This document shows positions 7,111-55,967 of a DNA stretch of 64,000 nucleotides, one piece after another (the stretch's first letter is position 1; each line of letters opens with the position of its first letter). The notes beneath the pieces are model-generated. The model was given only the letters and a program-made list of their open reading frames with translations. It had not been told where the DNA came from and searched no databases. Source of the stretch: a virus. Location: IMG/VR virus record IMGVR_UViG_3300024346_000009. The stretch is one strand, 5' to 3'. A program made the translations under genes and the position numbers.

Positions 7111-7197
7111 TAAGAAGATTTAAAGTTAATACTTTTTTAACTGGTAGTAAACGTAAATTTATTCCAGAAATTTTACCTGGAACTAATACACCAATAA

Positions 7198-7269: not shown

Positions 7270-7303
7270 CCCTTAATCCTAACATTGTACTCGGCTACAA
7301 TTA

Positions 7304-20868: not shown

Positions 20869-21645
20869 ATGTCTACTTCTTCTGACTATGAAGATGCAGT
20901 TGCTGCAAATATACATAACGCCTCTAAAGGGGTAGTTGGTATACGTCATAAATCTGGTCTACAAAGCATGACATCTTACCCGGATGTCGAGGTTAAGTAT
21001 AAAGGTATATCTACATGGGTGGAGGTAAAGATGAATCATACTGATAACCTAATGAATCCTAGATTTAAGTATGTTGATGGTAAATGGGCAGTATCTGGTG
21101 TCGATTCTAAAGCTATTCAGGAGCTAACTCAATACTTCAACGTCAGTGAGGATGCAAAGAAGTGGGTAGATGCGTTAAGAAAGTTTGTAAAAGATCCAAA
21201 AAATAAGTACACAGGTGATCCAGCAAATATGACATTGCACTCACTGGTTGGAGATAGGGCTAGGGATAAAAATTCAGTACCGTTAATTACAATGAAAAGG
21301 TTTTTAGCGTCTCGTCCGAATAAAAATATATTCAAAGTCGATGGTGTTGATGTCGGGTCTTTGGTAACAGATCATTATACTAAAGGTAAGTCAGCTGCAG
21401 CATTGTATGTAAGTAGCGGAGATGATTTTTATAGATTTGGTAATAAGAATCCTTTTAAATTTACCCTAAAAGAAGCGCCTTTGTTTAAAGGAACTAATAG
21501 TATTACCTATCGTATTGGTGATCGATCAAGTAATTTTGAGATTATGGTAGAAGTAAAACTTAAAAATACAAACGCTATGGGTAGTAGTGACACTAGTGTC
21601 AAACCCGGATCATCTAAACCTAATCCTTTTTCAAATTTAAAATAA
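20869..21645 (+). CDS. PD-(D/E)XK nuclease-like protein
   Basis: YE..PDVEV..WVEVKM motif. Confidence 0.5.
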   Translation: MSTSSDYEDAVAANIHNASKGVVGIRHKSGLQSMTSYPDVEVKYKGISTWVEVKMNHTDNLMNPRFKYVDGKWAVSGVDSKAIQELTQYFNVSEDAKKWVDALRKFVKDPKNKYTGDPANMTLHSLVGDRARDKNSVPLITMKRFLASRPNKNIFKVDGVDVGSLVTDHYTKGKSAAALYVSSGDDFYRFGNKNPFKFTLKEAPLFKGTNSITYRIGDRSSNFEIMVEVKLKNTNAMGSSDTSVKPGSSKPNPFSNLK

Positions 21646-40195: not shown

Positions 40196-41079
40196 TGGTT
40201 GTAATAGATTATAGTCAAACGATTATATCTAATTTAATGGCGGAGATAGGTACAAGAAGTGATGTTGAAATTGATGTAAATCTTCTTCGACACATGGTTA
40301 TTAATACTATCCGAAGTCATAAGGTTAGATTCGGTGGGGAGTTTGGCGAGGTGGTAATTGCCTGTGACAGCAGAAAGTACTGGCGTAAGCAACAATTTCC
40401 TTATTACAAAGCCAATCGTAAAAAAGCGAGAGAGAGTTCTGGTCTTAATTGGCCGCAAATATTTGACTCGATTAATCTTATTAAAGAGGAGCTGAAGGCT
40501 GTCTTTCCGTACCGGGTTATTGAAGTTGAGGGTACAGAGGCAGACGATGTTATTGCTGCATTAGTGTACTGGTCTTTAGATAATGATCTTAAGGAAGGTA
40601 CGTTGTTTAGTGAACCAGCCCCGTTTTTAATTATCTCCGGTGATCACGACTTTAATCAGCTCCAAGTGCATAAACACGTCAAGCAATATTCGCCTATTAA
40701 AAAGAAATTTGTTAAGTCTGAACTCCCACCCGAGCAATGTGTTATAGAGCACATTATCAGAGGGGATAAAGGTGACGGGGTACCGAATGTACTATCTGCT
40801 GATGATAGTATTGTATCTGGCGAGAGACAGAAGCCTATCTCTACAAAGAAGCTAGAGGAATGGATGGCTGATCCTACCACCATGCCAACGGATGATGAGT
40901 TTGTTCGAAATTATCACCGTAACAAAATGCTGGTTGATCTGTCCATGATTCCTAAATCCATACAAGAACAGATTATAAATACCTTTATAAATTACCCTAT
41001 AAAAGACCGTAGTCAATTACTAGATTATTTTATAAAAAATAGAATGAAACAAATGACTGAACATACACAGGAGTTCTAA
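40195..41079 (+). CDS. rnh: RNase H / 5'-3' flap exonuclease
   Basis: YWR..YYKANR, EADD, SGDHD, GDKGDG. Confidence 0.95.
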   Translation: MVVIDYSQTIISNLMAEIGTRSDVEIDVNLLRHMVINTIRSHKVRFGGEFGEVVIACDSRKYWRKQQFPYYKANRKKARESSGLNWPQIFDSINLIKEELKAVFPYRVIEVEGTEADDVIAALVYWSLDNDLKEGTLFSEPAPFLIISGDHDFNQLQVHKHVKQYSPIKKKFVKSELPPEQCVIEHIIRGDKGDGVPNVLSADDSIVSGERQKPISTKKLEEWMADPTTMPTDDEFVRNYHRNKMLVDLSMIPKSIQEQIINTFINYPIKDRSQLLDYFIKNRMKQMTEHTQEF

Positions 41080-41546
41080 TGAATTTACTTATATCTGAAA
41101 TTTTAAATAATTTTGAAGCTGCTAAGACAAAGCAGGAGAAGCTAGCCATTCTCAAGCAAAATGATACCCCGGTACTCCGTACTATTATGAGGTTAAATTT
41201 TGATCCTAAACTAAAGATGGATCTACCCGAAGGGGAACCACCTTATAAAAAGGATCTAGATAAGCCTATTGGGTACCATGAGACTAATCTTATTCAAGAA
41301 TACCGAAGATTTTACATCTGGCTTACCCCTCAAACAAACTTACCTAAGTTTAAGAAAGAAACGCTATTTGTCAGTATGCTTGAAGGCCTTCACTGGTCGG
41401 AGGCAGAGGTGTTAGTTTTAGCAAAAGACGGTAAACTAAGTACTAAGTTTAAGAGTCTTAAGGAAGACATGGTTAGGGAAGTATACTTAAATTGTTTATC
41501 TGAAAAAGAGAAAGTTACTAAGGTAACGACAGACCCTTTGGTATAA
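41079..41546 (+). CDS. conserved T4-like hypothetical protein (candidate -1 frameshift extension to 41674)
   Basis: LPEGEPPY, LEGLH..EA; ends C_CCT_TTG GTA TAA. Confidence 0.8.
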   Translation: MNLLISEILNNFEAAKTKQEKLAILKQNDTPVLRTIMRLNFDPKLKMDLPEGEPPYKKDLDKPIGYHETNLIQEYRRFYIWLTPQTNLPKFKKETLFVSMLEGLHWSEAEVLVLAKDGKLSTKFKSLKEDMVREVYLNCLSEKEKVTKVTTDPLV

Positions 41547-41670
41547 AGTCTCTCTGGCATAGGTTCTTTCGACGAGCAGATCCCGTAACCCCCTGGTCTG
41601 TAAGTACTGATATTCCGTCACCAGAGAGATCGTTCGACGTAAGGCTGACAACGTTACGTAACCGTAAACC

Positions 41671-41699
41671 TTGATTTACGACTGAAAGTATACTATAAT
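41671..41699 (+). promoter_or_regulatory. sigma70-like promoter
   Basis: TTGATT-17-TATAAT. Confidence 0.7.
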
Positions 41700-41704
41700 A
41701 TATT

Positions 41705-42058
41705 ATGATCTATTCTAATACTAAGTCAAAAGTTAAACCTAAGACTATGCCTAAAGCCGAGCGCGAGGCGTATGCTAAGTGGTGTGCTCAATACGATATT
41801 AAACCTGAGGGTAAGGTTAAGAAAAAAGTAGTAGTTTATAATACTGAATTACCTGGTACTGTCTATAAGCCGTTTATTCGTGAGACGGTTCGGTATCCTA
41901 GTTTAGATACCGGTCATAAGGGTGCTGTTAATACTGGTAAGACTACTATGTGGTATACGGGCGATAAGATGCTTGGTGTAGCTACGATGCATAAGTCTAA
42001 CTTAGTTCCTATTTTTAGTGATGATAACGCGGTCGAAGTATCGCAAATGAGGAGATAA
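41705..42058 (+). CDS. conserved hypothetical protein
   Basis: YTG..GVATMHKSN.VP. Confidence 0.7.
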   Translation: MIYSNTKSKVKPKTMPKAEREAYAKWCAQYDIKPEGKVKKKVVVYNTELPGTVYKPFIRETVRYPSLDTGHKGAVNTGKTTMWYTGDKMLGVATMHKSNLVPIFSDDNAVEVSQMRR

Positions 42059-42059
42059 A

Positions 42060-42440
42060 ATGAGTACATTAATATATAATGCAATCCGTACCCCTGATGG
42101 TACTGTACTAGAGTCTAGACATAGACATGATTATGTTGTATATGAAGATAAAAATGGTAGAGAGTATATGGTGGATGGCGGCCATGATTATGTTAGACGC
42201 AACGTGCACGACGATGCTCCTTATGAAGAGATAAGTGTCTATACAACTGATGGTCACGATAAAGTACGTGAAGTACTTAAATGGGGTACATATGGTATCA
42301 ACGGTGATCAGCCCTTAACCTACATTGCACTTAAAGACATGAATACCGGGCATATTCAGGCCTGCCTAGATACCCAATCTCGTATGCATCCGACATACAG
42401 ACAAGCTTTTGAAGAAGAATTGAAACTAAGGAGTATATAA
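42060..42440 (+). CDS. hypothetical protein
   Basis: ESRHRHDY..VDGG.DY.RR. Confidence 0.7.
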   Translation: MSTLIYNAIRTPDGTVLESRHRHDYVVYEDKNGREYMVDGGHDYVRRNVHDDAPYEEISVYTTDGHDKVREVLKWGTYGINGDQPLTYIALKDMNTGHIQACLDTQSRMHPTYRQAFEEELKLRSI

Positions 42441-42715
42441 TGAGTTTGCCTTCCGATCCCACCGCCCGTAAAGCTATTAAGAAATGTATGGATGAGTTAT
42501 CTGCATCCATGGCACGGATTGATGGTGAACGAGATTTTATCAAGGAAGCTATTGGTAACATATGTGAAGAATATGAAATGAGTAAAAAGACTCTTCGTAA
42601 ACTAGCTAAAGTATATCATAAGCAAAACTTCTCAAAAGAGGTTGCCGAACATGAGGAGTTCGAGACCATGTATGAACAGTTGACCGGGGAAACTAGTCTG
42701 GGTAATATTACATAA
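42440..42715 (+). CDS. dsbA: DsbA-like dsDNA-binding protein
   Basis: Size and LAKVYHKQNF motif; near rnh. Confidence 0.65.
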   Translation: MSLPSDPTARKAIKKCMDELSASMARIDGERDFIKEAIGNICEEYEMSKKTLRKLAKVYHKQNFSKEVAEHEEFETMYEQLTGETSLGNIT

Positions 42716-42716
42716 A

Positions 42717-42905
42717 ATGCATACAGTTTATAATCTAGAGATGCAGGTACGAGATAAAATGAACCGTCTTAAAAAGACCTCTCACGTTGGCGTATATAAT
42801 TCTATTGAAGATCTAGAAGTAGCAAAAGGTAAGATGCTGGAGATTAATCCAGATAATACATTTGACGTTCATTCTATTGATCATCTTTTTGAACCTACAG
42901 AGTAA
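42717..42905 (+). CDS. hypothetical protein
   Basis: Packed ORF. Confidence 0.5.
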   Translation: MHTVYNLEMQVRDKMNRLKKTSHVGVYNSIEDLEVAKGKMLEINPDNTFDVHSIDHLFEPTE

Positions 42906-42918
42906 TATAAATAAACAT

Positions 42919-43164
42919 ATGCCGACATATATTTTTCGTAATAAGAATACAGATGAAGTCTATGACAAAATGATGTCATGGGACAATCGTGAAGTATATC
43001 TCCAAGAGAATCCTAACCTAGAGGTCCTCATGGGAGCTCCGGCTATGGGGGACTCTGTCCGTTTAGGTATTAAAAAGCCAGACGATGGGTTTAAGGAAGT
43101 ACTGTCAAAGATTCATGCTGCTAATTACAGAAGTAACTTATCGGATAAACTATCTAGAAAATGA
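42919..43164 (+). CDS. FmdB-like small protein
   Basis: MPTY.F start; TATAAATA at 42906. Confidence 0.6.
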   Translation: MPTYIFRNKNTDEVYDKMMSWDNREVYLQENPNLEVLMGAPAMGDSVRLGIKKPDDGFKEVLSKIHAANYRSNLSDKLSRK

Positions 43165-43190
43165 TTCAAGTGATTACTTCATTCAACCAT

Positions 43191-43219
43191 AAGGGCTATA
43201 CTTATCTATAGCTCTTTTT
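43191..43219 (+). terminator. intrinsic terminator
   Basis: AAGGGCTATA..TATAGCTCTT plus T-run. Confidence 0.65.
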
Positions 43220-43234
43220 CATTTAAGGTTTTAT

Positions 43235-44002
43235 ATGTCCACAAAAAGAGCAGCGAAACTGGCAGTCGTACATGAAGAAGGCTACCCACAAAAACAAACA
43301 GCACCACGCCCCGTTACAAATACTTTAAGATTAAAAACTGAACACCTTAAATTCTTCGATCCACTTACCGAAAATCAAAAAATATTTTACGACGCGTATG
43401 CCCGCGGTGATTACTTTGTAGCACTACATGGTGTTGCTGGAACAGGAAAAACATTTATTGCTTGTTATAAGGCATTAGAGGAAGTATTAGATAAGAACAA
43501 CCCCTTCAATAAAATTATTATCGTTAGGTCAGCTGTCCAGTCGCGAGAGATGGGTCATTTACCTGGTGATGTAGATGAGAAGCTAGAAATATATCAACAG
43601 CCGTATCGCCAAATATGCCATACCTTATTTGATCGTAAAGATGCTTACGATAGATTGGTTGAACAAGGTCATGTAGAGTTTATTTCAACATCGTTTATTC
43701 GCGGTATGTCATTTGATGATGCTATTATCATTGTTGACGAAATGCAAAATATGAACTTTGAAGAAATAGATACCGTCATGACACGGGTTGGTTACAGATC
43801 AAAGATCATCTGGTGTGGTGATTACAGACAAACTGATCTTCGCAAGTCAGGTGACAAAACAGGTATTTTAAAATTCTTTGATATTGCTTTACACATGGGT
43901 GCATTTACACGGGTTGAGTTTACGGCTGATGACATTGTAAGAAGCTCTTTAGTAAAAGATTATATTATTGCTAAGCTTAGATACGAAGATCTTACCCCTT
44001 AA
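43235..44002 (+). CDS. phoH: PhoH family ATPase
   Basis: GVAGTGKT, GHLPG, RGMSF, DEMQN, GD..Q.D, DIVRS. Confidence 0.95.
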   Translation: MSTKRAAKLAVVHEEGYPQKQTAPRPVTNTLRLKTEHLKFFDPLTENQKIFYDAYARGDYFVALHGVAGTGKTFIACYKALEEVLDKNNPFNKIIIVRSAVQSREMGHLPGDVDEKLEIYQQPYRQICHTLFDRKDAYDRLVEQGHVEFISTSFIRGMSFDDAIIIVDEMQNMNFEEIDTVMTRVGYRSKIIWCGDYRQTDLRKSGDKTGILKFFDIALHMGAFTRVEFTADDIVRSSLVKDYIIAKLRYEDLTP

Positions 44003-44022
44003 ACTATTTTGAAAGAACTATT

Positions 44023-45069
44023 ATGAGATTAGAACCATACACAATTTTCGTCTCTCTATGCTCATACAGAGACCCCCTCCTGTACAGTACAGTCATGTCA
44101 TTGATACAGGGGCGGTGTGGGAGGAATAGAATAGTTATTGGAATATTTGAGCAGATTGTTGCTGAAGACTCACTGCCGGTAAAGTATCCTGATATTAAAG
44201 AAGCTATTGACGCGTACGAAAATAACACACTTAGGTCAGTGAATGGCGGGCCAAGGCCAGCGGAAATTATATATAAACGAATTGATCCCCAATACTCTAA
44301 TGGGGCTGGGTGGGCTAGAGCTATTAACCAATATCAACTATCTCCTGATGAATATGATTTACTTTATCAAATTGACTCCCATATGCTTTTTGATAAAGAT
44401 TGGGATAGGACCCTTATAAGCGATTATGAGGATGCAATTATTAAGTACAATACTAAAAAAGTAATTATAACTGCGCCGTGTAAGTGGTACGATGTTCTTG
44501 AGGATAACAGTATTTCTAAAGGCCCAGAATTATATTATGAAGGTACTAAGGATATAAGTTACAGAGCGACAGGTCACATGTTGTATTATATGACAAATGC
44601 ATTTGTCAATGGGTATATTATATCTGCTCATGGACAAATTGATCCTATAGGACCAGGGATACGGGATGCATTCCACATATGCGCAGGTAATACTGTCTTT
44701 CCGTCACAGTGGGTACGAGATGTAGGTAACAATATTGAAATTCACTTTGAAGGGGAAGAACAGTGGCTTAGTCTGGCTTCTTTTGCAGCAGGGTATCAAC
44801 TATGTCATCCAAAAGAAATTGTAACATACCATTATATGAAATCGGGTAATTATATTACAAAAGTATGGTTTGAACAGGTTGTAAGTAATTTCAGAAGGTC
44901 ACATGATGTATTAAGGTCAATCGCTGAATTATCAAAGTTGATAACAACGTTACCTGAAGATGTTTTAAAGAGATTTTATGAATATTCAGGAATTGATTAT
45001 ATAAATAAAACTGTAGATCAGCGGGCTCTACATCCCCATCCCCCTTTTACCCTACCGCCAAAAGAATAA
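44023..45069 (+). CDS. GlcNAc-transferase-like glycosyltransferase (GT60-type)
   Basis: IFVSL.SYRD, G.GWAR, QIDSHMLF..WD, GEE. Confidence 0.75.
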   Translation: MRLEPYTIFVSLCSYRDPLLYSTVMSLIQGRCGRNRIVIGIFEQIVAEDSLPVKYPDIKEAIDAYENNTLRSVNGGPRPAEIIYKRIDPQYSNGAGWARAINQYQLSPDEYDLLYQIDSHMLFDKDWDRTLISDYEDAIIKYNTKKVIITAPCKWYDVLEDNSISKGPELYYEGTKDISYRATGHMLYYMTNAFVNGYIISAHGQIDPIGPGIRDAFHICAGNTVFPSQWVRDVGNNIEIHFEGEEQWLSLASFAAGYQLCHPKEIVTYHYMKSGNYITKVWFEQVVSNFRRSHDVLRSIAELSKLITTLPEDVLKRFYEYSGIDYINKTVDQRALHPHPPFTLPPKE

Positions 45070-45073
45070 CCAA

Positions 45074-45691
45074 ATGAATATTACATTAGAACAGTTACAA
45101 AGCCTTATACCAAACGCTGTTGGAGGACCGGAGGCATGGTATGAGCCACTATGTGAAGCATTACCGCAATACGAGATAAACACCGTTGAAAGAGTTGCAG
45201 CGTTTATAGCTCAGTGCTCACATGAATCTGGTGGTTTTTCTGTTTTAGAAGAAAACCTAAACTATAGAGCAGCCACACTCTCTAAGTTATGGCCACAAAG
45301 ATTTCCACCAGGTGTAGCCGAGCAGTATGCGGGTAAGCCTGAAATGATTGCTAATAAGACTTACGGTGGTAGAATGGGTAATGGGTCGGAAGAAACTGGT
45401 GAAGGGTACAAGTACAGGGGCCGTGGTATTCTTCAATTAACAGGTAAGGATAACTATAAAACCTGTTCTCAAGCACTCTTTCAAGACGGGTCTCTTTTAG
45501 AAGACCCTGATCTTCTTTTAGACCCGTATTATGCAATTCATTCTGCTTGCTGGTTTTGGAATAAAAATAAATTAAACCAATTTGCAGATTCTGGTGATCT
45601 AACAACAATGACTAAAAAAATTAACGGCGGAACAATTGGGCTTGAGGATCGTATTAAGCACTATGATCATGCTGTAGAGATCTTAACATAA
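45074..45691 (+). CDS. GH19 endolysin
   Basis: AQCSHES, EENL, YRGRG..QLTG..NY, INGG..GL.DR; TATAAATA at 45000. Confidence 0.93.
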   Translation: MNITLEQLQSLIPNAVGGPEAWYEPLCEALPQYEINTVERVAAFIAQCSHESGGFSVLEENLNYRAATLSKLWPQRFPPGVAEQYAGKPEMIANKTYGGRMGNGSEETGEGYKYRGRGILQLTGKDNYKTCSQALFQDGSLLEDPDLLLDPYYAIHSACWFWNKNKLNQFADSGDLTTMTKKINGGTIGLEDRIKHYDHAVEILT

Positions 45692-45700
45692 GGAATATTA

Positions 45701-46429
45701 ATGAGTTATAACTTTACCTTAGCCCAGCTATCGCTTCTAATAAGAGAGCCTGGGGAGTCCGAGAACTGGTACGAGCCTCTTTGTGCGGCAATGGATCAGT
45801 ACGAAATTAACAGTGCAATAAGAATATCTTCTTTTCTTACTCATTGTGCCTACATGACAAAACGATTTACAGAAATGGAAGAAGACTTAAGCTACAGCGC
45901 TGAAGATTTAGTAAAGACATGGCCTAATATATTTACAGTAGAAAATGCTGTATCATACGCCGGTAATCCCGAAAAGATTGCTAATAAAGCGTACAGCAAT
46001 ATACTGGGTAATGGTTCAGAAGAATCAGGTGATGGTTATAAGTTCAGAGGACGCGGCCTGTTAATGATTCGCGGTAGAGGTGATTACACTACATGTTCAC
46101 AGACTCTCTTTCGGGATTCAAGATTGGTAGATACACCAGATTTAGTAAAAGAAAAACCTACCTGTATTGATTCAGCTGGTTGGTTCTGGTCTACAAATAA
46201 TTATAACGTAAGGTACGATGCTGATACGAAGTATGTGCAATTTGGTATGCCAGGTAATACTACTTTTGTTGCTAATACTATACTAGATAATACAGTAAAT
46301 ATTCCGAATATTAATATTATTAATACCGGCGGTAAGTCAGAGGCAGCATTGACCAGTAGAGAATCACAATCCGCAATCAGTAACTATTCATCGCTCTTAC
46401 CCTTCATACTGGAAATAACTAAAGTATAA
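45701..46429 (+). CDS. GH19 paralogue, catalytic Glu lost
   Basis: Colinear with 45074 protein but HES is YMT and QLTG is MIRG. Confidence 0.8.
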   Translation: MSYNFTLAQLSLLIREPGESENWYEPLCAAMDQYEINSAIRISSFLTHCAYMTKRFTEMEEDLSYSAEDLVKTWPNIFTVENAVSYAGNPEKIANKAYSNILGNGSEESGDGYKFRGRGLLMIRGRGDYTTCSQTLFRDSRLVDTPDLVKEKPTCIDSAGWFWSTNNYNVRYDADTKYVQFGMPGNTTFVANTILDNTVNIPNINIINTGGKSEAALTSRESQSAISNYSSLLPFILEITKV

Positions 46430-46433
46430 TATT

Positions 46434-47102
46434 ATGTTTAATCATGTAAAGCTTGACAAAGTTGTACCTAGGTTGCAACAAATTAATGAGAATGGGGTAA
46501 GACACTATATGACCCCAGAAGGAAATAAATATCCTTCCATTACCACTGTCCTATCTGAGTATAGCCGTAAGGGTATATATGAATGGCGACAAAGGGTAGG
46601 AGACGAGGCTGCAAACAGAATATCGGGTAAAGCCTCTACCAGAGGTACCAAACTACATAAGGCATGCGAAGATTATATCAATAACTTAGAGCCTGAGTTT
46701 CGTACCCCCTTTGAGCGAGATTTATTTAAACGATTTACCCCTACCTTACATCGTATCAACAATGTGTATGCACAAGAGATACGTATGTACTCCGACCACC
46801 TACGTATTGCAGGTACGGTAGATTGTATAGGTGAGTTTGATGGGAAGATGTCGGTAATCGATTTTAAAACATCTGCCAAAGAAAAAGATAAAGAATACAT
46901 TGAAAACTACTTCATGCAGTGTTCAGCGTACGCCATTATGTTTGAGGAGCAGTATGGAATTCCTGTCTCACAAACCGTCGTTGCAATTGCTGTAGAGGAT
47001 GGGGAGTCACAAGTCTTTATAGAGAAGAGAGATACTCATGTAAAGCGGTTGATTCACTTTCGGGATTTATATGAACGTAAGAGTAGCCTAATAACTCATT
47101 AG
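46434..47102 (+). CDS. PD-(D/E)XK exonuclease
   Basis: YPSITTVL, RGT..H, AGTVD, IDFKT, Q..AY. Confidence 0.88.
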   Translation: MFNHVKLDKVVPRLQQINENGVRHYMTPEGNKYPSITTVLSEYSRKGIYEWRQRVGDEAANRISGKASTRGTKLHKACEDYINNLEPEFRTPFERDLFKRFTPTLHRINNVYAQEIRMYSDHLRIAGTVDCIGEFDGKMSVIDFKTSAKEKDKEYIENYFMQCSAYAIMFEEQYGIPVSQTVVAIAVEDGESQVFIEKRDTHVKRLIHFRDLYERKSSLITH

Positions 47103-47185
47103 CATATATAATGAATACGTAGTAAGTAGATTATTGTTTTAAAGGGCAGAGAGAAGAATAGTTAAGATCACCATAAGGAGATCAA

Positions 47186-47293
47186 ATGTCTGAATCATCA
47201 GAAGAATATGTATACCAAATAGTATGTGGTATACTGATAGTGTTCTCTATACTATGTATAGGTATTGCATCGGTCTTCTTTTGGCGAGCGTGA
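47186..47293 (+). CDS. 35-aa single-TM microprotein (not in track)
   Basis: AAGGAG SD; MSESSEEYVYQIVCGILIVFSILCIGIASVFFWRA. Confidence 0.55.
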   Translation: MSESSEEYVYQIVCGILIVFSILCIGIASVFFWRA

Positions 47294-47297
47294 CATA

Positions 47298-47605
47298 GAT
47301 TATTGCTGTATGAAGTAAAGAGAAAGACGTCTTGGACGCGGGCGCAAATCCCGCCAGGTCCACCAAAGTATACTATAAATGGGGTCGTAGCGGTTGTAAG
47401 AACTTTAGTACATACCTTAGATAATAGTATACTTTATTGGGCCTGAAATAGATTCGACAGGGCAGCAAGTAACAGAATGGACAGCACATCAGCAACGATG
47501 TAAAAAGAAGAAAACAAAGTAAACGCAAACGACTCAAAGTTCGCATTAGCAGCCTAAACACTGCTTAGGGTTTCGGTAGGTTTCCTCGTAACAGAATAAC
47601 CTACC
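47298..47605 (+). ncRNA. ssrA: circularly permuted two-piece tmRNA
   Basis: Acceptor piece ends CAGGTCCACCA (47365); coding piece starts GGGCCTG..GATTCGAC (47439); G3:U70; tag ANDSKFALAA at 47525-47557. Confidence 0.93.
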
Positions 47606-47640
47606 ATTTTCTAACACTCATACACACAAAGGAGATTATT

Positions 47641-47913
47641 ATGAGTAACATGACCCCTTTCGAGATTCGTCTCGAACTTCTCAAAATGGCCAAAGATATG
47701 CTTGGTGACGACTACTACGGTAAGCGCGAAGTAATATCTAACGACTGGGCCACAAAGGTAGAGACGGCTAAACACGCCGGACAAACGCCTCCAGAGCATC
47801 CGGGCTACCCAGCCTACCCCTCAGAAATAGATATCATTGCAAAGGCTCATGTCTTGAATGGTTTTGTTTCCAACATCCCTCAAGATAACATTAAGACTAT
47901 TAGTAAGAAGTAA
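47641..47913 (+). CDS. conserved hypothetical protein
   Basis: PFEIRLELLKMAK..I.KA..L..FV. Confidence 0.75.
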   Translation: MSNMTPFEIRLELLKMAKDMLGDDYYGKREVISNDWATKVETAKHAGQTPPEHPGYPAYPSEIDIIAKAHVLNGFVSNIPQDNIKTISKK

Positions 47914-47966
47914 TCTGAAGGTAGGGGCTCTTGTTAACTCAGGAGCCTCCTTAATAAGGAAAACCA

Positions 47967-48509
47967 ATGGTAAAGACTTTTAATCTATTTTTAAAAATAG
48001 GTCTTGTGGTATTAATGGTATTTTTAGTTACCAAATTTACCACCAATAGAATCGACTATTATAATACTAAGCAATATAATGGTACCCCAATCACAATGGA
48101 GGACAGAGAAAAGCAGTTGACCTGCTTAGCAAAGAATATCTATCACGAGGCGGCTACAGAGCCGTTTGAGGGTAAGGTTGCAGTAGCTCAGGTTACATTA
48201 AACAGGGCAGCCTCTGGCAAGTTCCCACCCAATATATGCGATGTAGTTTATCAAAAGAATGTTTTTTATGGTAAAGTCATCTGCCAGTTTTCATGGTATT
48301 GTGAAAGTGGTCCTAAAGTTAAATCTAATGCTCACTACAAGGAGTCAATGGAAGTGGCTAAGAAAGTACTTTTAGAAAACTTTAGATTACCCTCAATGCA
48401 TAAAGCAATGTACTATCATGCTGATTATGTAAACCCTAATTGGAATCTTCCAAAGATCAGTCAAATCGGTCGTCATATATTTTACGGTGAGAAAAATGGA
48501 AAAATTTAA
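47967..48509 (+). CDS. cell wall hydrolase (SleB/Hydrolase_2)
   Basis: CLA.NIYHEA, VAQV.LNR, CQFSW, IG.HIFY. Confidence 0.92.
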   Translation: MVKTFNLFLKIGLVVLMVFLVTKFTTNRIDYYNTKQYNGTPITMEDREKQLTCLAKNIYHEAATEPFEGKVAVAQVTLNRAASGKFPPNICDVVYQKNVFYGKVICQFSWYCESGPKVKSNAHYKESMEVAKKVLLENFRLPSMHKAMYYHADYVNPNWNLPKISQIGRHIFYGEKNGKI

Positions 48510-48804
48510 CCAATTAAAAGATACAGTATTCTCCTACTTTGAAGGCTTTACAAAGGCGACGGCTGATACGTTTGCATGGATCAGCATAGTGGTTTTAATT
48601 GCTTCAACCATTCCAGGCTTTATTGCTGTAATGGCCGGTGCTACAGATAAGATGCCACCATTAGATATTACGTTACTGGTGTGGGCAAGTCTGTTGCTTT
48701 ATTTTGTAAGATCAGCTATACTCAAAGATATGCTGATGGTGGTCACGATAGGGTTCGGGTTCGCGGTTCAAGCAATATTACTAGGATTGATTTACTTTAC
48801 ATGA
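48496..48804 (+). CDS. membrane protein
   Basis: Three hydrophobic segments. Confidence 0.65.
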   Translation: MEKFNQLKDTVFSYFEGFTKATADTFAWISIVVLIASTIPGFIAVMAGATDKMPPLDITLLVWASLLLYFVRSAILKDMLMVVTIGFGFAVQAILLGLIYFT

Positions 48805-49064
48805 ATGATGACGCTGAAAAGTTGACGGACGTATTGGTTATTACCAAGCGGTTTAGATCACCAAATGAGTTTAGTATCTATATTGATGAGATGGTTGCCA
48901 GTAACGGGATCAAGTACATGGATGCCGTTATAGGTTACTGTAATGAGAAGGATATTGAGATAGATAGTATCGGTCCTTTAATTAATCAGAAACTTAGAGA
49001 AAAGATTCAGATGGAGGCCGAGCAAGAGAATATGATCAAACCTAGAGGCCATCTACCTATATGA
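48801..49064 (+). CDS. 33: late transcription coactivator gp33
   Basis: FS..I..YMDA..C..I..L.EKI..EA; 33-59-32 synteny. Confidence 0.85.
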   Translation: MNDDAEKLTDVLVITKRFRSPNEFSIYIDEMVASNGIKYMDAVIGYCNEKDIEIDSIGPLINQKLREKIQMEAEQENMIKPRGHLPI

Positions 49065-49672
49065 TTGCTATGGAACCGTTTTCCGTCTATAAGTATTACC
49101 TCGCCCTACGACTTCACTTCACCACCGAAGGGTACGATGTGATTGCGCAGCAAGGGAGAGTGAGAGCGTCAAAGCAAGCGTTCTTAAAGCGTAAGGATTT
49201 ATTATCAATACGTAAAGTGGCGGAGACGTACTCAGATAAAGATATAGTTGACTTCCTTGTTGCCAATTTTATATCGGGTGATAGGTGGGGTGGTATATTT
49301 GATGTGGAATCAAGAGAGAGGTATATTAGTTGGAAGAAGCGTATAGAATCTATAGCGTATAATTTTGAAAAAGAGTTAAACAAAGCTGTCCTCTACGCAG
49401 AAAAAAATGGGATTACATTCTTTGATTTATTCGTGACTGGGGATAACCAGCATCCATATATAATCAAGATGTTTCTAAGAAATGAGATATCTATTGAAAC
49501 TCTTGTTATCCTAAATAAATTAAATAGCTTCATTGAGAAGTTTGACGTGGATTTGAAAGATGATTTAGTATGGCCAGATGTTTCAAGAGTAATTAGAAAA
49601 TATTCACCATTCCTTAATATAAAAAAAGATAAGTACTATGCCATATACCACAGATCAATTGGATCAAACTAA
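49061..49672 (+). CDS. 59: helicase loader gp59
   Basis: Y..YLA.RLHF..YD, F.KRKD, ISIET. Confidence 0.9.
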   Translation: MIAMEPFSVYKYYLALRLHFTTEGYDVIAQQGRVRASKQAFLKRKDLLSIRKVAETYSDKDIVDFLVANFISGDRWGGIFDVESRERYISWKKRIESIAYNFEKELNKAVLYAEKNGITFFDLFVTGDNQHPYIIKMFLRNEISIETLVILNKLNSFIEKFDVDLKDDLVWPDVSRVIRKYSPFLNIKKDKYYAIYHRSIGSN

Positions 49673-49853
49673 TTTACGTATTATTGAGATTGAAAAGAAT
49701 TTATGTATTATGCAAGAAAATATAACTGCCGTTTCTGATCATATTAGGGAAACCCAAAGATATTTAATTAAATTGGCTCACCACCAATCAGAAATTGCCA
49801 AGAGGCTTTCCTCATGGCCTTTTATAGCCGTAACGAAACAGAGTGAGGAATAA
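49638..49853 (+). CDS. hypothetical coiled-coil protein
   Basis: Packed ORF. Confidence 0.5.
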   Translation: MPYTTDQLDQTNLRIIEIEKNLCIMQENITAVSDHIRETQRYLIKLAHHQSEIAKRLSSWPFIAVTKQSEE

Positions 49854-49874
49854 ATGCTAGGGACTTTATTGTAA

Positions 49875-50078
49875 ATGAAATACGATAACCGGGATAGGGA
49901 TAGAGAGTGGGATAAGAAACCACGTAAGGTACTTAAAGGGACCGATAAAGTTGCCAAGTATCGAAGAAGCATATATAATATGTTAACAGATGAAGATTCC
50001 GATCTTGATCTGGAAACTGAGGAAGGTGATGTTGGTCATAATTATCATGGAAATAGTAGTTATAAAAAACAACGCTAA
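49875..50078 (+). CDS. hypothetical protein
   Basis: Packed ORF, charged. Confidence 0.5.
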   Translation: MKYDNRDRDREWDKKPRKVLKGTDKVAKYRRSIYNMLTDEDSDLDLETEEGDVGHNYHGNSSYKKQR

Positions 50079-50113
50079 TACATCGCATACAACGTTAATA
50101 CAAGGAGAGTAAT

Positions 50114-51004
50114 ATGGCAATGGATTTTAATACAATGAAAACCGCTCGTGGTGGTTTCGATAGCCTGATGAAGGAAGTCGAGAAGATTGCAACACCACAA
50201 AATCAAGACAACGCAAAAGATGATCGCTTCTGGCAACCAGAGGTAGATAAGGCCGGTAACGGCTATGCAGTCATCCGCTTTCTTCCGCCTCCTAAGGGTG
50301 AAGATCTTCCATGGGTTCGTGTTTGGAATCATGGATTTCAAGGTCCTACAGGAAAGTGGTACATCGAGAACTCACTCACAACATTAAGTAAACCTGATCC
50401 TGTATCAGAACTTAATACCGAGTTGTGGAATACAGGTCTTGAGTCTAACAAGGATATTGTACGCAAACAAAAGCGTCGATTGACTTATGTTTCAAACATC
50501 TACGTCGTTAAAGACCCTGCACATCCTGAGAACGAAGGTAAAGTATTTCTTTACAAGTTCGGTAAGAAGATCTTTGATAAGATTAAAGATGTGATGCAGC
50601 CTCAGTACGAAGATGAAACCCCTATCAACCCCTTCGACTTCTGGAAGGGCGCTAACTTCAAGTTGAAGATTCGTAATCTTGAAGGATATCGTAACTACGA
50701 TAAGTCTGAGTTTGATAGTCTTTCTGTTCTATCTGAAGATGATGACGCACTTCAAACTACCTGGGGTAAGCAACATTCTTTAGTTGAGTTTCTTGACCCT
50801 AAGAACTTTAAGTCGTATGATGAACTTAAATCTAAACTTCAAATGGTCTTGACTGCAACAGGTTCAGCACCTAGAGCAGAAGAGTTATCATTGGAAAGTA
50901 TGCCCCGACCTGTACCAGCAAAAGCAGCTTCGAAGAAGGAAGTTGATTTTGACGATGCAGAGGGTTCCCTATCGTACTTCGCCAAGCTGGCGAATGATGA
51001 TTAA
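50114..51004 (+). CDS. 32: single-stranded DNA-binding protein gp32
   Basis: DDRFW, GNG.AVIRFLP, WYIEN, YFAKLA tail. Confidence 0.97.
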   Translation: MAMDFNTMKTARGGFDSLMKEVEKIATPQNQDNAKDDRFWQPEVDKAGNGYAVIRFLPPPKGEDLPWVRVWNHGFQGPTGKWYIENSLTTLSKPDPVSELNTELWNTGLESNKDIVRKQKRRLTYVSNIYVVKDPAHPENEGKVFLYKFGKKIFDKIKDVMQPQYEDETPINPFDFWKGANFKLKIRNLEGYRNYDKSEFDSLSVLSEDDDALQTTWGKQHSLVEFLDPKNFKSYDELKSKLQMVLTATGSAPRAEELSLESMPRPVPAKAASKKEVDFDDAEGSLSYFAKLANDD

Positions 51005-51119
51005 TTAGGTAGTCTTAGCCTCCTCCAGGGCACTCGTTACCTTAGTAACCCAGGCCCTGGTCCGGTGACGAGCTAGTTAAATTTTGTGTTTAACTTTTAT
51101 TTAAATTTTGGAGTTTTTT

Positions 51120-51332
51120 ATGAAGACAATTATCGCAATTATTACTACCCTGTTCGCCTTGAGTTCTTTTGCTGCTGAGCCAGCTAAGAAAGAAGAAGCA
51201 AAGCCTGCTGCTAAAGCTGCCGCCGCTCCTGCTGCGCCAGCCGCTAAAGCTGCTCCTGCCGCGGCTCCTGCTGCACCAGCAGCACCAGCTGCCGCTAAGA
51301 AAGACGAAAAGAAGCCTGAAGCAAAAAAGTAA
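51120..51332 (+). CDS. secreted Ala/Pro/Lys-rich disordered protein (candidate -1 frameshift extension to 51436)
   Basis: Signal peptide ..SSFA; PAA repeats; ends A_AAA_AAG TAA. Confidence 0.8.
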   Translation: MKTIIAIITTLFALSSFAAEPAKKEEAKPAAKAAAAPAAPAAKAAPAAAPAAPAAPAAAKKDEKKPEAKK

Positions 51333-51434
51333 AGCGGCCTTGCAAAGCTGGGCAAACTGCGGCTGACGGCTGTAGAGTTGTCAAGAAGGCCGTGAAGAAA
51401 CCAGCTAAGAAGTCTACGAAAGTAGATAAGAAGT

Positions 51435-51462
51435 AAAAAAAGGGACTTTCGGGTCCCTTTTT
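51435..51462. terminator. bidirectional intrinsic terminator
   Basis: A-run, GGGAC-TTTCGG-GTCCC, T-run, between convergent genes. Confidence 0.88.
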
Positions 51463-51464
51463 CT

Positions 51465-53987
51465 TTAGTATACCGCTATCTTATTTGAGTACCTATCGAG
51501 CGCAGATCCTGTATATTCCGGTCGTGGTGTAGGCTTAGATGGCATAAACTTTGTAGTATTATTACTACTAACGTTATTAGATACAACGGTATTATTAGCA
51601 CCACCCTTAGATGCATCTCTTTCCATATCGGCGTTTTCGGTAGAAGTTTTAGCAACATCTTTTCCGGTTAGAATAGGGGAACCTTTACCAACATTACCCT
51701 CAACATCTAGGGTTGATGGGGCAAGCGCTTGAGCTCTTGCTTCTTTTATCTCTGTTAATTTCTTTCTAGCACCTTCAACATCACCTTTTTTATTAAGTTC
51801 TTGAAGTTGATTATATTCCTGTTTAGTTACTTCAGTGTCATATTCTGCACTATCACCACCCGTACCGCTCATCTCACTAGATACTTTATAGGTATCTTTA
51901 CCAAATAGACCACCAGAAATTCTCTGGCCAAGCATGCTTCCGTAATTAGCTTCGGTCTTGTTGATTTGTTTACCTTCAACTTTACCTTCTACCACTTTCT
52001 CATCAGATGATGTACCTAAAAAGCTGCCTGATTCTTTACCCTTTGCAGTAAACAAACCACCAAGGAATGTACTACCGAGTACAGACTTTTGTGCTGTGAC
52101 CCCTTCTTTATTACTAGCTGTTGAGGTAGTTGCCTCTAACCCAGGTCCTCGAGATATTGATTTATCGCTAGTAGCCACTTCACCTGTACTACTTACCATT
52201 TGATCAGCCATGGCAACACCCTTTGCCTGATCGTTTAAACCTATACCGCTGTTATAAACACCCTTAACCTTATCACCAATACCACCGAAGAAGTCTCCAG
52301 CTGCATTAATAGCTTTGCCGCCGTATTCCCCAACAACCTTACCTGCTTTAGATCCAGCAAATGCTCCTAGGGCTCCGCCTGCTATACCACCGATAGCTGT
52401 ACCAACACCTGGTACTATTGAACCAATTGTAGCACCGAGGGAGGCACCAGCAATAGCTCCGGCTGCCATACCAGTACCTTCACCTATTGCGCCACTCTTT
52501 TCAACAGTAGCTGTATTACCTATTTCTTTTCTTGCAGCTGCAGCTTCTTCTGGCTTCATTTCACCAGAGTCAAACTTAGCCTGAACCTCTTCCATTTTAG
52601 CTTGCTTACTATCTTCGGCTGCTGTATATCCTTCGTATGCAGTATATGCACCTAGGCCAACTGCTGCTGCTGCACCCAGTACCTTACCTGTATTACTAGT
52701 TGCAAACTTAGCCAGCTTACCGCCCATACTTGCTACCTTACCAGCACCTCCCTTTTTGCCCACCAAATCCATTGCACCTGAAGCTAAGTCACCTACAAGA
52801 GAACCTTTCTCATCCTCTTCTTCTTTCTTCGCCGATGGAGCACCCTTTTGATCGGTAATTTCAGCTGGTGTTTTAGGTGCTAAAGCATCTCGTATTTCTT
52901 TAAGCGTTGTTAGTTGCTCTTTTGTAGTCTCAAGCATCTGCTTAGATAACTCAAGATCACTCTTAGCAGCATCAGCAAGGGCTTCACCTGATGATGTAAC
53001 ATTATCACCTTCTGGGTTAGCAGCCTCTGGTGATTTCTCTGCGGGACTTGATACCTTACCTTCCCGTTCTTTTTTCTTATCCTCTGGTGGCTCCTCGTAC
53101 CCAATTAAATGATCTCTTATCCTGCCAGGGGTCGCTTTTACCTCGTCCTTAAACGTTGCAAAGAAGCCTCTATTATCCGTCTGTTCTTCATCATTTTTTT
53201 CTTTAGGTTCTACCCCACCTGTAATCCCTGCTACACTACTTCTTTCTCTACGTGCTCTTTTAATAGATGTATTTCTACCTTCAGAAGGTCCCTGATCATC
53301 ACCTAAATTACCACCCAAAGCTTCAGCTGTTGCTCCACCAGGTCTAGTTGATGTAACGCTGGTTATTAAATTTAATTTATTATCTTTTCTAGCCCGTTCA
53401 CCCTGCCCAGATAAGGTATCTCTGGCAGTTTCAAAATCTAAAAAGCCACCATCTTTAGATGTCTTGCCTGAGACCTTGCTCTCAATATCTCTACCACTGG
53501 TATTTCTATATTGAGCCGCCTCCTTGTCGTACTCAACACTACCTTCAGTTAATTTTCTTACTAATGAAATCTCTTTTAATTGTTCATCTTGTAACTTATT
53601 AGTGTTTATCCCTATAGCACCCATGGTAGCAACCAGGTGACCACTATCAATAAACTTACCTACATCTGACCCAACATTTTGTACTGCAGCTTTTACGCCT
53701 GTAATAACTTCCTTAAGCCCCTCTAATACCGTAGTTATCCTAGATAATGTATCATTTGCAGTGTCTAGTTGATCTTGAACCTCTATTACATCATCGCTGA
53801 CATCATGTAACCCATCTCTTAAAGAATCTCTTACAGATGAAGTTTCATCTTTTAAGTCACTTAGACTTTCATTGGTTTTATCAATACCTTTGGTAGTTTC
53901 TTTTTGTGCTAAAATCCCACCACCAGTTTGCTCCTTGAGTTTATCAAGGAACGCTTTAAAGCTAGGATCTGCTGATGGAGATTGCAT
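51465..53987 (-). CDS. tail tape measure / gp29-like protein
   Basis: 840 aa coiled coil with Gly/Ala-rich hydrophobic block, Asn-rich C-terminus; downstream of gp26/gp51. Confidence 0.65.
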   Translation of the reverse strand: MQSPSADPSFKAFLDKLKEQTGGGILAQKETTKGIDKTNESLSDLKDETSSVRDSLRDGLHDVSDDVIEVQDQLDTANDTLSRITTVLEGLKEVITGVKAAVQNVGSDVGKFIDSGHLVATMGAIGINTNKLQDEQLKEISLVRKLTEGSVEYDKEAAQYRNTSGRDIESKVSGKTSKDGGFLDFETARDTLSGQGERARKDNKLNLITSVTSTRPGGATAEALGGNLGDDQGPSEGRNTSIKRARRERSSVAGITGGVEPKEKNDEEQTDNRGFFATFKDEVKATPGRIRDHLIGYEEPPEDKKKEREGKVSSPAEKSPEAANPEGDNVTSSGEALADAAKSDLELSKQMLETTKEQLTTLKEIRDALAPKTPAEITDQKGAPSAKKEEEDEKGSLVGDLASGAMDLVGKKGGAGKVASMGGKLAKFATSNTGKVLGAAAAVGLGAYTAYEGYTAAEDSKQAKMEEVQAKFDSGEMKPEEAAAARKEIGNTATVEKSGAIGEGTGMAAGAIAGASLGATIGSIVPGVGTAIGGIAGGALGAFAGSKAGKVVGEYGGKAINAAGDFFGGIGDKVKGVYNSGIGLNDQAKGVAMADQMVSSTGEVATSDKSISRGPGLEATTSTASNKEGVTAQKSVLGSTFLGGLFTAKGKESGSFLGTSSDEKVVEGKVEGKQINKTEANYGSMLGQRISGGLFGKDTYKVSSEMSGTGGDSAEYDTEVTKQEYNQLQELNKKGDVEGARKKLTEIKEARAQALAPSTLDVEGNVGKGSPILTGKDVAKTSTENADMERDASKGGANNTVVSNNVSSNNTTKFMPSKPTPRPEYTGSALDRYSNKIAVY

Positions 53988-54406
53988 TATTGATCCAGGT
54001 TAGGTTTAATTATTGGTCTTCTAATCACAGGCATAGGAGTATCATTGCCAGTATCTGGCGATGAATTAAACGTGGTAGATACTGTCTGGCTTACAGGCAT
54101 CATTGGTAGAGATATGCCGCCGTTGTTTGCTCCGGCTAATTTTTCCTGTGTTCTACCAAATGCAGCAAGCCCCAACACTGCACCCATTGCAATGTGGTAC
54201 AGGCCTGCACCCTGTAAAGTTAGTGGTTGCCATTGTGTAATCTGGCCAACTTTTGCAACAGTTTGTAATAGACTCCATAGTATTGGAAAAATAACAAAGT
54301 CAAAAGTACATGTGGCCATATATAGCCAACCCATCATCGGACGCCACTTACTGTTCATCCAATCTTCTTTTTTTAATTCGCTTGCGCTTTTAACTTCGTC
54401 TGCCAT
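53987..54406 (-). CDS. holin-like membrane protein
   Basis: WRP.MGW..FDF..P..GA.LG..A.GRT.EK. Confidence 0.6.
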   Translation of the reverse strand: MADEVKSASELKKEDWMNSKWRPMMGWLYMATCTFDFVIFPILWSLLQTVAKVGQITQWQPLTLQGAGLYHIAMGAVLGLAAFGRTQEKLAGANNGGISLPMMPVSQTVSTTFNSSPDTGNDTPMPVIRRPIIKPNLDQ

Positions 54407-54606
54407 TATAGATTCCTTGCATTTTGTTTAAGCATTTTAAGCTTTTCATTTTCCTTTTTAATATAGTCAATTAGTAATGAAACGTAAATCTCCCTCTCCC
54501 ATGGCATCATATTTTCTAACTCTGTAAGGCTGTACTTATGATGCTGCATCAGCGAGAAATTTAAAGTAAAGTAGTTAGCTAATGAATCATGTGAGAGGGC
54601 TATACG
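54406..54606 (-). CDS. 51: gp51-like baseplate hub assembly protein (not in track; probably reached by -1 frameshift)
   Basis: RIALSHDSLANYFTLNFSLMQHHKYSLTELENMMPWEREIY; first ATG only at 54549. Confidence 0.85.
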   Translation of the reverse strand, partial: RIALSHDSLANYFTLNFSLMQHHKYSLTELENMMPWEREIYVSLLIDYIKKENEKLKMLKQNARNL

Positions 54607-55295
54607 AAAAAATTCTGTAATCCCTCAAGCCGCGATACATTGTGCTTATTACATTTCGGGCAATCACATTCAATTATCTGTACGATTTTTGGTGATGTAA
54701 CAAAAAACTTTTCCAATTTATCAAACTGTTCTTTAGTTAAAGAGTAAATAAATTCTTCTAATTCTGCCCTAGTTTGATCAGCCGCCTCCCAATACTCGTC
54801 TTTATTGTAAATAGCTTTTACACAATTAATAATTAAATCGATTACCGATTGGTTATCTTTTGATGCAAATACTCCCACAACTTCGTCAATATTGGGGTAC
54901 TTCATTTCAATACCAATATCATCTGTAATATTAATCTTATTACTGTGATCAGGTTTAACTTCAATCTTGAGATCCTCAATACTAAAACTGGTATCAATTT
55001 TAGTACCGCATTCACAATTAATAACTACATCTACCGATTCACCTATAGACTTTGCCCGTAGGTTCATAAAGATATATTCAATATCGAAGTGAGGTAAATC
55101 TTTTACCTTGAGTTCCTTAAAGGTACACACATCGACAAGCTCCCGTATAATTCGTGAAACTTCTTCATTTTCTGCCTCCGACATTGTTAACAGCACCTTA
55201 TGCTCTTTAACAAGAAAGGGTCTAAATTTAATTTTATTACCTGTAGAAGGTAAATTCAATTCATACGTTGGTGTTTCTAATTTTGGTAAAGCCAT
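54600..55295 (-). CDS. 26: gp26-like baseplate hub protein
   Basis: MALPKL..P.Y, RPFLVKE.K, RAKSIGE, LEGL.NFF. Confidence 0.88.
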   Translation of the reverse strand: MALPKLETPTYELNLPSTGNKIKFRPFLVKEHKVLLTMSEAENEEVSRIIRELVDVCTFKELKVKDLPHFDIEYIFMNLRAKSIGESVDVVINCECGTKIDTSFSIEDLKIEVKPDHSNKINITDDIGIEMKYPNIDEVVGVFASKDNQSVIDLIINCVKAIYNKDEYWEAADQTRAELEEFIYSLTKEQFDKLEKFFVTSPKIVQIIECDCPKCNKHNVSRLEGLQNFFV

Positions 55296-55310: not shown

Positions 55311-55967
55311 TTATCTATCAATTCGTCTAGGATCAGCCTTCGCAAACTCTGATCTTGTATTATTAGCCTGAGTAGATGAAAGTTCATCTGGGCTTACAAT
55401 TGTAGGTGTTCTATATGCTGTACTCGATCTCTGTGTATTTCTCCAATACCTGTACGCAAATAATATATTCAATCTATGTGTTTGATTTGTAGCAGCATTA
55501 TTAAGTTCCATTAAATTCATATTTCTTGGAAATGCATCGATTAACTCTACCTCATACGTTACATTTTCTTGTTCGTCTAACTGTCTTATAAAGATACTTG
55601 TAATGTAGTCCCGCTGATACCCAACGGTAAAGTCGTCAGGGTCGATAATAGTATGCATCCAGTTCTCAAAAAATCTTCTAATATCCATGTCCCTATCTAC
55701 GTGAAAGGCAAACGATATCCCCTCGCCCCCGTATTCTGAAGTAACAGGTCTTTGATATGTAGGACCAAAGATCTTAAAAGCTTTAGAGGATATGTTCAGC
55801 ATTGGAAGACTGGCTTGCTCACAATACAAACTTACCATTTCCCCCATACCCGTTGCCTGCATACCAGCGGGAGGAATAATTAAAACTTCAAACCTGTTAG
55901 TTCTTGCTAAACTATCAATGGCGATGGTGGTTCGAAAATCATCTAAGTTAAAATTAGCTTTTGACAT
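55311..55967 (-). CDS. tail tube initiator gp54 / gp19-like
   Basis: ARTNRFEV, C..LP, F..W, DAFP, F.YRYW. Confidence 0.75.
   Translation of the reverse strand: MSKANFNLDDFRTTIAIDSLARTNRFEVLIIPPAGMQATGMGEMVSLYCEQASLPMLNISSKAFKIFGPTYQRPVTSEYGGEGISFAFHVDRDMDIRRFFENWMHTIIDPDDFTVGYQRDYITSIFIRQLDEQENVTYEVELIDAFPRNMNLMELNNAATNQTHRLNILFAYRYWRNTQRSSTAYRTPTIVSPDELSSTQANNTRSEFAKADPRRIDR

Follow-up and report, generated by a model that had tools for sequence, protein, structure and literature searches.

Programmed −1 frameshift candidates at the ends of three unrelated genes in an uncultured freshwater T4-like phage

To our knowledge, bacteria and their phages have few conserved −1 frameshift genes apart from tail assembly chaperones, dnaX, and insertion sequences. 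In Escherichia coli dnaX, which encodes tau and gamma, the slip site A_AAA_AAG is accompanied by an upstream Shine–Dalgarno (SD) element and a downstream hairpin, and the shift truncates the protein. Here, we analyze three genes that end in slip sites of the X_XXY_YYZ type and lie within a 64,000-nucleotide (nt) stretch (hereafter, the window) of the virus record IMGVR_UViG_3300024346_000009, a 159,688-bp IMG/VR record with a completeness estimate of 96%. Two described phage systems serve as comparisons for one of these genes. The capsid gene pair 10A/10B of phage T7 is frameshifted at a poly-T signal (PMC12846349). The gp26/gp51 pair forms the tail assembly chaperone (TAC) of T4-like phages according to Vladimirov, Gautam, and Davidson (2022, Virology, doi 10.1016/j.virol.2021.11.003; cited in PMC12846349 and PMC10885494), and poly-T slippery sequences in the genes for the short form (TAC-N) of T4-like phages are attributed to the same study in PMC12846349. 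T4 itself encodes the short and long chaperone forms separately, in the summary of that study given by PMC10885494.

The source of the window is an uncultured freshwater T4-like myovirus with distant cyanophage kinship: its gp32 has 72–79% nucleotide identity to cyanophages, over a short stretch only. Profile matches in the window identify rnh, gp32, and the tail tube, gp26-like, gp51-like, and tape-measure-like genes. The three genes of interest are numbered along the window (Table 1): site 1 lies in a gene of the DUF6433 family, site 2 in a gene for a small secreted protein, and site 3 in the gp26-like gene. A preliminary description of this DNA had proposed that three unrelated genes carry −1 frameshift cassettes, and the genes do prove unrelated: a DNA-ligase-like DNA-binding protein, a small secreted protein, and a chaperone. 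All three heptamers are in place (C_CCT_TTG at 41534, A_AAA_AAG at 51323, and T_TTT_TTC at 54606 on the minus strand), in the zero frame of real open reading frames (ORFs) and 0–1 codons ahead of the stop. Past the stop, the −1 frame stays open as far as a promoter-like site (site 1), an intrinsic terminator (site 2), and a 47-amino-acid (aa) ORF (site 3), and folds of the window give each site a candidate stem that starts 4–7 nt past the heptamer, where 5–9 nt is the spacing looked for in a stimulatory structure, and has a putative stimulatory role.

We consider that all three sites are probably genuine programmed −1 ribosomal frameshift cassettes. From a single mRNA, each would give two products, a short one in the zero frame and a longer trans-frame one, and the comparative data at all three loci fit such pairs of isoforms, which ORF callers miss. 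Alignment of related loci, the check that the preliminary description had called for, finds the heptamer conserved at every site and the −1 ORF conserved as protein at every site; its conserved part lacks a preceding start codon at sites 1 and 2. Judged by these alignments, the −1 ORFs are open, under protein-coding constraint, and apparently without initiation of their own. That the ribosome rather than RNA polymerase is the shifter, how efficiently it would shift, and what the long isoforms would do are readings of these conserved features.

Site 3 and the gp26/gp51 tail assembly chaperone

The frameshift at site 3 is already published for T4-like phages: it is that of their G/GT-type tail assembly chaperone. 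Site 3 resembles the described T4-like system in its gp26-family gene, its gp51-like −1 frame, its poly-T slip site, its place between the tail tube and tape-measure-like genes, and the short and long products to be expected, and it shows no essential difference from that system; T4 itself has separate genes (PMC10885494). The impression that such frameshifts had not been described for T4-like phages thus falls for site 3 (Vladimirov et al. 2022, as cited in PMC12846349 and PMC10885494) and appears to stand for the other two: the frameshifts at sites 1 and 2 were found neither in deposited phage genomes nor in the literature searched, and that literature search returned no paper on frameshifts in T4-like phages beyond gp26/gp51. 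The gene order at site 3 (tail tube, gp26, gp51-like, a 139-aa gene, and a tape-measure-like gene whose tape-measure matches are weak only) mirrors the V-G-GT-H order of lambda. Site 3 also shares features with T7 10A/10B: a U-rich slip site ending in UUC, placed close to where a structural gene ends, and a minor form that is longer at its C-terminus; gene family and role are unlike. Ribosomes would read up to T_TTT_TTC, where the gp26-like gene ends, slip there, and read on in the gp51-like frame, giving a predicted long isoform (TAC-NC) of about 296 aa.

Conservation at this site is deep. T_TTT_TTC is invariant, two codons before the stop, in 77/77 IMG/VR loci whose protein identity ranges from 82% to 41%, and in these loci the −1 extension of 64–67 aa is conserved even ahead of its Met codon. 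The same poly-T heptamer lies in frame at the gp26 end of a cyanophage, of Pelagibacter phage Mosig, and of Vibrio phage phi-pp2; Sinorhizobium phage phiM19 has an in-frame T_TTT_TTT at this place; and in cultured phages the zero-frame stop lies up to 10 codons from the heptamer. A tblastn search with the extension finds matches in 572 deposited phage records.

The ORFs downstream of the heptamers could instead be small genes in their own right that are initiated independently (site 3, for example, would then encode a free gp51-like protein of 47 aa), in which case the heptamers would be incidental. The gp51-like ORF does have an ATG at 54549, and GenBank records of relatives give gp26 and gp51 as separate coding sequences. 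Homology and coding-type conservation, however, begin at the heptamer, 20 codons before this ATG: the −1 reading from the heptamer matches the gp51 family phrog_634 (3.7e-28) from residue 2 onward, and it also matches positions 231–276 of the phrog_150 profile, which are the tail of the gp26 profile. Between heptamer and Met, the codon-position entropy of the −1 frame is 0.78/0.71/1.34, with third positions the most variable, and in some relatives (loci L065–L068) a Val codon that cannot serve as a start stands in place of the Met codon. Together with the start-codon evidence from sites 1 and 2 given below, we regard independent initiation as very unlikely.

Frameshifting at site 3 is also consistent with the RNA features around the slip site. 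The stem has a fold z of −2.59 in the window; among relatives, the long-range stem is paired in 87% of cells, is matched by 0/500 shuffles, and shows compensatory change in 5 pairs. Upstream of the heptamer, the SD-like element of the window belongs to a GARGG motif that occupies the same position in most of 51 unique sequences, those of the window's own clade without exception. Cultured outgroups have only weaker purine-rich motifs at that position, and the GARGG motif is confounded with a conserved Glu-Gly dipeptide at the same place. For this published system, the present analysis documents two features: a long-range stem that is conserved, and the GARGG ahead of the heptamer. As a side observation, the 139-aa protein whose gene separates the gp51-like part from the tape-measure-like gene (53987–54406, minus strand) has a weak three-transmembrane 'holin' match in a gene transfer agent family (PF11351, 1.8e-7; phrog_3427).

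Site 1 and the DUF6433 gene after rnh

Among 119 proteins homologous to the zero-frame product of site 1, 110 end in P-L-x-stop. In 48 of 79 related loci, C_CCT_TTR stands two codons before the stop and is followed by a −1 extension of 39–49 aa that is conserved as protein; its codon-position entropy is 0.77/0.76/1.11, again with the third position the most variable. Five of the 79 loci have no extension. The frameshift would add about 45 residues with a conserved Trp/Phe motif to the DUF6433 protein. Gene callers occasionally call ORFs of 29–48 aa within this extension, as expected of a small separate gene. Against such a gene stand the start codons: none is present upstream of the heptamer in the −1 ORF of any of 39 unique sequences (0/39), about half of these sequences have no start at all, and the −1 ORF of the window is among those without any.

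A contrast at this site comes from a sister clade of about 25 loci (L215–L248; for example, L228:1459-1623 and L247:1474-1632). These loci have no C_CCT_TTR; they carry an in-frame A_AAA_AAR nine codons before the stop, followed 4–6 nt downstream by a compact hairpin of 9–11 bp with the zero-frame stop in its loop. Their −1 extension aligns with the C_CCT_TTR-type extension around an invariant Trp and is homologous to it, and the L212 lineage has an A-run heptamer and a C_CCT_TTR-type extension together. Slip site and stimulator thus appear to have been replaced while the extension was kept, a pattern that is hard to explain except by the extension being translated. In the C_CCT_TTR type, the long-range stem is paired in 89% of cells across 34 sequences, as against 27–57% when the register is slid, and compensatory change is seen in 3 pairs.

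The site 1 cassette is not shared by cyanophages in general, because the cultured cyanophages P-RSM4, S-PM2, and P-SSM2 have the DUF6433 gene (T4-GC 313) and lack the heptamer, and the gene that comes next in them starts on its own and shows no relation to the extension. The extension has no relative by tblastn in 50,697 deposited phage genomes, a profile search of 1.84 billion representatives for DUF6433 plus extension returned only eight ORFs of 29–48 aa, and a literature search found no paper mentioning DUF6433. In the loci L280:1114-1398 and L281:1117-1404, both from cultured cyanophages, T4-GC 314 overlaps the DUF6433 homologue by 19 nt in the −1 frame; T4-GC 314 has its own start, has no heptamer, and is unrelated to the site 1 extension.

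DUF6433 models as a stand-alone DNA-binding domain (DBD) of the ATP-dependent DNA ligase type, next to rnh. The AlphaFold (AF2) model is of moderate confidence (predicted local distance difference test, pLDDT, 69.6). In VIA-align it matches the T4 ligase DBD 6dt1_E with Z 9.9 (root-mean-square deviation 3.6, 116 residues aligned) and 5wfy_A with Z 9.8, and its top 12 structural matches are all ligase DNA-binding domains (Z 8.5–9.9); Foldseek gives the match to a ligase DBD an E-value of 5e-3 and a probability of 1.0. The model superposes, as an alpha-helical fold, on the DBDs of T4 and other ATP-dependent ligases (5wfy, 6dt1, 6rce, and 9fzx). It differs from these ligases in standing alone, without adenylation or OB domain, and sequence identity is 11–21%; a PDB sequence search and NCBIfam returned nothing for DUF6433. 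A whole ATP-dependent DNA ligase was considered and rejected, as there is no adenylation domain with a catalytic lysine: PF01068, the ligase adenylation domain, has no match in the 155-aa DUF6433 protein and none in the 96%-complete genome.

The site 1 extension is presumably a partner-docking tail. We infer that the long form would add this tail to a nick- or DNA-binding module that acts with RNase H. The phage sliding clamp (window 1107–1775) is a guess at the docking partner; a complex prediction with three clamp copies gave no verdict.

Site 2 and a small secreted protein

The relatives of site 2 comprise the gene downstream of gp32 and loci found with the Cys-loop motif itself. This Cys loop is the only conserved motif of the family. 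In 21 unique single-ORF relatives it lies in frame. The frameshifted forms, seven unique genes plus L091 and L094, represent four lineages with differing N-terminal parts; in every one of them GCA_AAA_AAG_TAA is invariant, the Cys loop follows in the −1 frame, and the −1 ORF ends at a terminator. No start codon precedes the Cys loop, and a signal peptide is supplied only by the zero-frame ORF, so that a Cys loop initiated on its own would also lack its signal peptide. The frameshift would join signal peptide and disordered linker to the Cys loop and Lys-rich tail, for a predicted long isoform of about 105 aa. The extension has no relative by tblastn among the same 50,697 genomes. One locus, L091:2971-3198, has an extra Cys pair in its zero-frame part besides the Cys loop in its −1 frame.

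The frameshifted forms have a closed fold of −19 to −27 kcal/mol, with the outer stem 5–7 nt past the heptamer, whereas single-ORF forms with the same Cys motif reach only −7 to −14 kcal/mol and have no outer stem. This restriction of the stem to the frameshifted forms is the strongest indication that, at site 2, it has a stimulatory role rather than being a side effect of the coding sequence. Some features are shared with dnaX: site 2 and the sister-clade DUF6433 genes share with dnaX the heptamer type and a stable structure 4–6 nt downstream. The differences lie in outcome and setting. In dnaX the shift truncates the protein, whereas at site 2 it would extend the protein, and the conserved domain would not be reached without it; at site 2 the heptamer runs straight into the zero-frame stop, unlike in dnaX; and site 2 in the window has no SD-like element upstream, with L094 the only one of its frameshifted relatives to have one.

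Frame breaks of this kind may also come from sequencing or assembly errors in homopolymers, or from inactivating mutations in pseudogenes. Sites 2 and 3 do lie in homopolymer runs, and single-ORF site 2 proteins exist. These single-ORF forms, however, differ from the frameshifted ones in domain order and not by one base, this frame structure is found again in dozens of metagenomes assembled independently and in the genomes of cultured phages, and even between deeply diverged relatives the −1 ORFs remain open and constrained as protein. Artefact or decay is, in our judgement, extremely unlikely.

A narrower alternative accepts site 3 as functional and attributes conservation at sites 1 and 2 to something else, such as RNA elements in 3′ untranslated regions that happen to stay open in the −1 frame. 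The gaps at both sites do hold conserved stems, and the frameshifts at both are predictions from sequence. An RNA element, though, would leave the third-position variability of the site 1 −1 frame unexplained, and it would account neither for a homologous site 1 extension kept while slip site and hairpin were replaced nor for a Cys-loop protein motif that is in frame in other members of the site 2 family. We therefore hold it improbable that site 3 is the only functional site of the three.

Table 1. Positions in the window of the three candidate cassettes and their immediate neighbours
Feature	Position	Strand	Evidence or remark
Site 1 zero-frame gene, 155 aa, directly after rnh	41079..41546	+	Pfam DUF6433 / phrog_461
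Site 1 heptamer C_CCT_TTG	41534..41540	+	One codon (GTA) before TAA 41544-46
Site 1 −1 ORF, 46 codons then TGA 41672-74	41534..41674	+	Predicted long isoform ~198 aa
Promoter-like site after site 1	41671-41699		−1 TGA overlaps its −35 hexamer
Site 1 candidate stimulator, 5′ arm	41548..41557	+	7 nt past heptamer; pairs with 41621-41630; minimum free energy fold
Site 1 candidate stimulator, 3′ arm	41621..41630	+	10-bp stem with 41548-41557
Site 2 zero-frame gene, 70 aa, signal peptide and Ala/Pro/Lys-rich region	51120..51332	+	Translation
Site 2 heptamer A_AAA_AAG	51323..51329	+	TAA 51330-32 directly after
Site 2 −1 extension, 35 codons then TAA 51434-36	51329..51436	+	Two-Cys loop and Lys-rich tail
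Site 2 candidate stimulator, 8-bp outer stem 51334-41/51386-93 enclosing inner hairpin	51334..51393	+	4 nt past heptamer; folding free energy (dG) −26.6, z −2.85
Two-way intrinsic terminator	51437..51462	.	Abuts −1 stop of site 2
840-aa protein downstream of site 3, weak tape-measure similarity	51465..53987	-	phrog_23574, phrog_794, both weak
Site 3 −1 extension, 66 codons, gp51-like	54406..54612	-	Runs through 47-aa ORF 54406..54549
Site 3 candidate stimulator, 3′ arm	54492..54503	-	Pairs with 54588-54599
Site 3 candidate stimulator, 5′ arm	54588..54599	-	6 nt past heptamer; pairs with 54492-54503
Site 3 zero-frame gene, 231 aa, gp26-like, short tail assembly chaperone (TAC-N)	54600..55295	-	Pfam T4_baseplate PF12322 4e-60; phrog_150 1.9e-63
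Site 3 heptamer T_TTT_TTC	54606..54612	-	One codon before TAG 54602-00
Site 3 upstream Shine–Dalgarno-like GAGGGA	54621..54626	-	8 nt before heptamer
Tail tube gene, upstream neighbour of site 3	55311..55967	-	phrog_45, phrog_3629

Weight of the evidence and reach of recoding

Several observations weigh against frameshifting at the three sites. The chance expectation is one: in-frame X_XXY_YYZ heptamers occur in the window at a background rate of 0.0051 per codon, and 5 of its 93 ORFs have one in the last three codons where about 1.4 would be expected by chance. This enrichment of near-stop heptamers is weak; the case therefore rests on conservation in relatives. At site 1, the window stem is no better than shuffles overall (z −1.26), RNAalifold on the alignment did not recover the long-range stem, and the stem arms coincide with conserved codons; an in-frame fusion of DUF6433 and extension was not found (a 'longer' word-index search returned nothing); and we know of no test of C_CCU_UUR as a bacterial slip site. 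At site 2, the frameshifted forms amount to only about four lineages. The trans-frame proteins of all three sites are predictions from sequence. Support for the stems, as judged from folds and alignments, appears good at site 3, at site 2, and for the sister-clade hairpins, and weaker for the long-range stem of site 1; stimulation is putative at each. Finally, the run of A6 at site 2 or T6 at site 3 may leave room for slippage by RNA polymerase.

In the latter case, RNA polymerase would stutter on the A6 or T6 run and add one base, so that a fraction of the mRNAs would encode the long form in one frame. Both slip sites are homopolymer runs of six, the coding outcome would be the same as that of a −1 frameshift, and the conservation data would fit equally well. 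Efficient transcriptional slippage, though, as far as is known usually needs runs of about nine. CCCTTTG at site 1 is no homopolymer run; the exact X_XXY_YYZ phase is kept at all sites, for which polymerase slippage has no need; and structures 4–7 nt downstream, present at site 2 only in the frameshifted forms, are the signature of a ribosomal stimulator. Slippage by the polymerase is an unlikely source of the long forms, and ribosomal −1 frameshifting is the reading that we retain.

The −1 frameshift genes at sites 1 and 2 have good support, are apparently undescribed, and are of an ordinary mechanistic kind. On balance, we lean towards both being functional, previously undescribed frameshifts, which would make this a phage lineage with three recoded genes. 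The larger proposal, that recoding is a phage-wide strategy, is not supported and overstates three independent cases. A crude scan of the single 159.7-kb genome (216 long ORFs) gave no further frameshift candidate; the three genes have no function in common; and the phylogenetic range differs from one frameshift to the next. Rfam has no known frameshift element at sites 1, 2, or 3. A fourth gene (20869–21645, plus strand), with A_AAT_TTA/T_TTA_AAA in frame 2–3 codons before its stop and the next gene in its −1 frame, was rejected because that next gene starts in a TAATG overlap, an arrangement of ordinary translational coupling.

Other RNA genes of the window were noted in passing. A tmRNA-like gene at 47252–47620 (plus strand) scores 92.9 bits with the Rfam model beta_tmRNA (gathering score 84) and 111.5 bits with tmRNA_permuted at 47304–47557, without an ARAGORN call. 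Two tRNA genes with anticodon CAT lie at 5505–5581 and 7197–7272 (plus strand).

For the annotation of these viruses, the frameshifts would mean that three genes are wrongly annotated across a widespread group of freshwater T4-like phages, with no entry for the long isoforms and with 'gp51' mini-genes that are spurious. They would also add two new gene families as testable models of frameshift evolution. In the first, two different cassettes of slip site and structure reach one extension; in the second, shifted and unshifted versions coexist, and the RNA stem is found only in the shifted ones. The analysis further points to a function for DUF6433 (T4-GC 313 of cyanophages) as a ligase-like DNA-binding module next to RNase H. 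If these readings are correct, site 1 would be the first recoded gene in the replication and repair module of T4-type phages, in which an orphan ligase-type DNA-binding protein gains a docking tail, and site 2 would encode a secreted protein that can acquire its only conserved domain in no other way than by frameshifting. The turnover between C_CCU_UUR and A_AAA_AAR slip sites at site 1 and the gain of the stem at site 2 would then be natural experiments on how frameshift cassettes originate.

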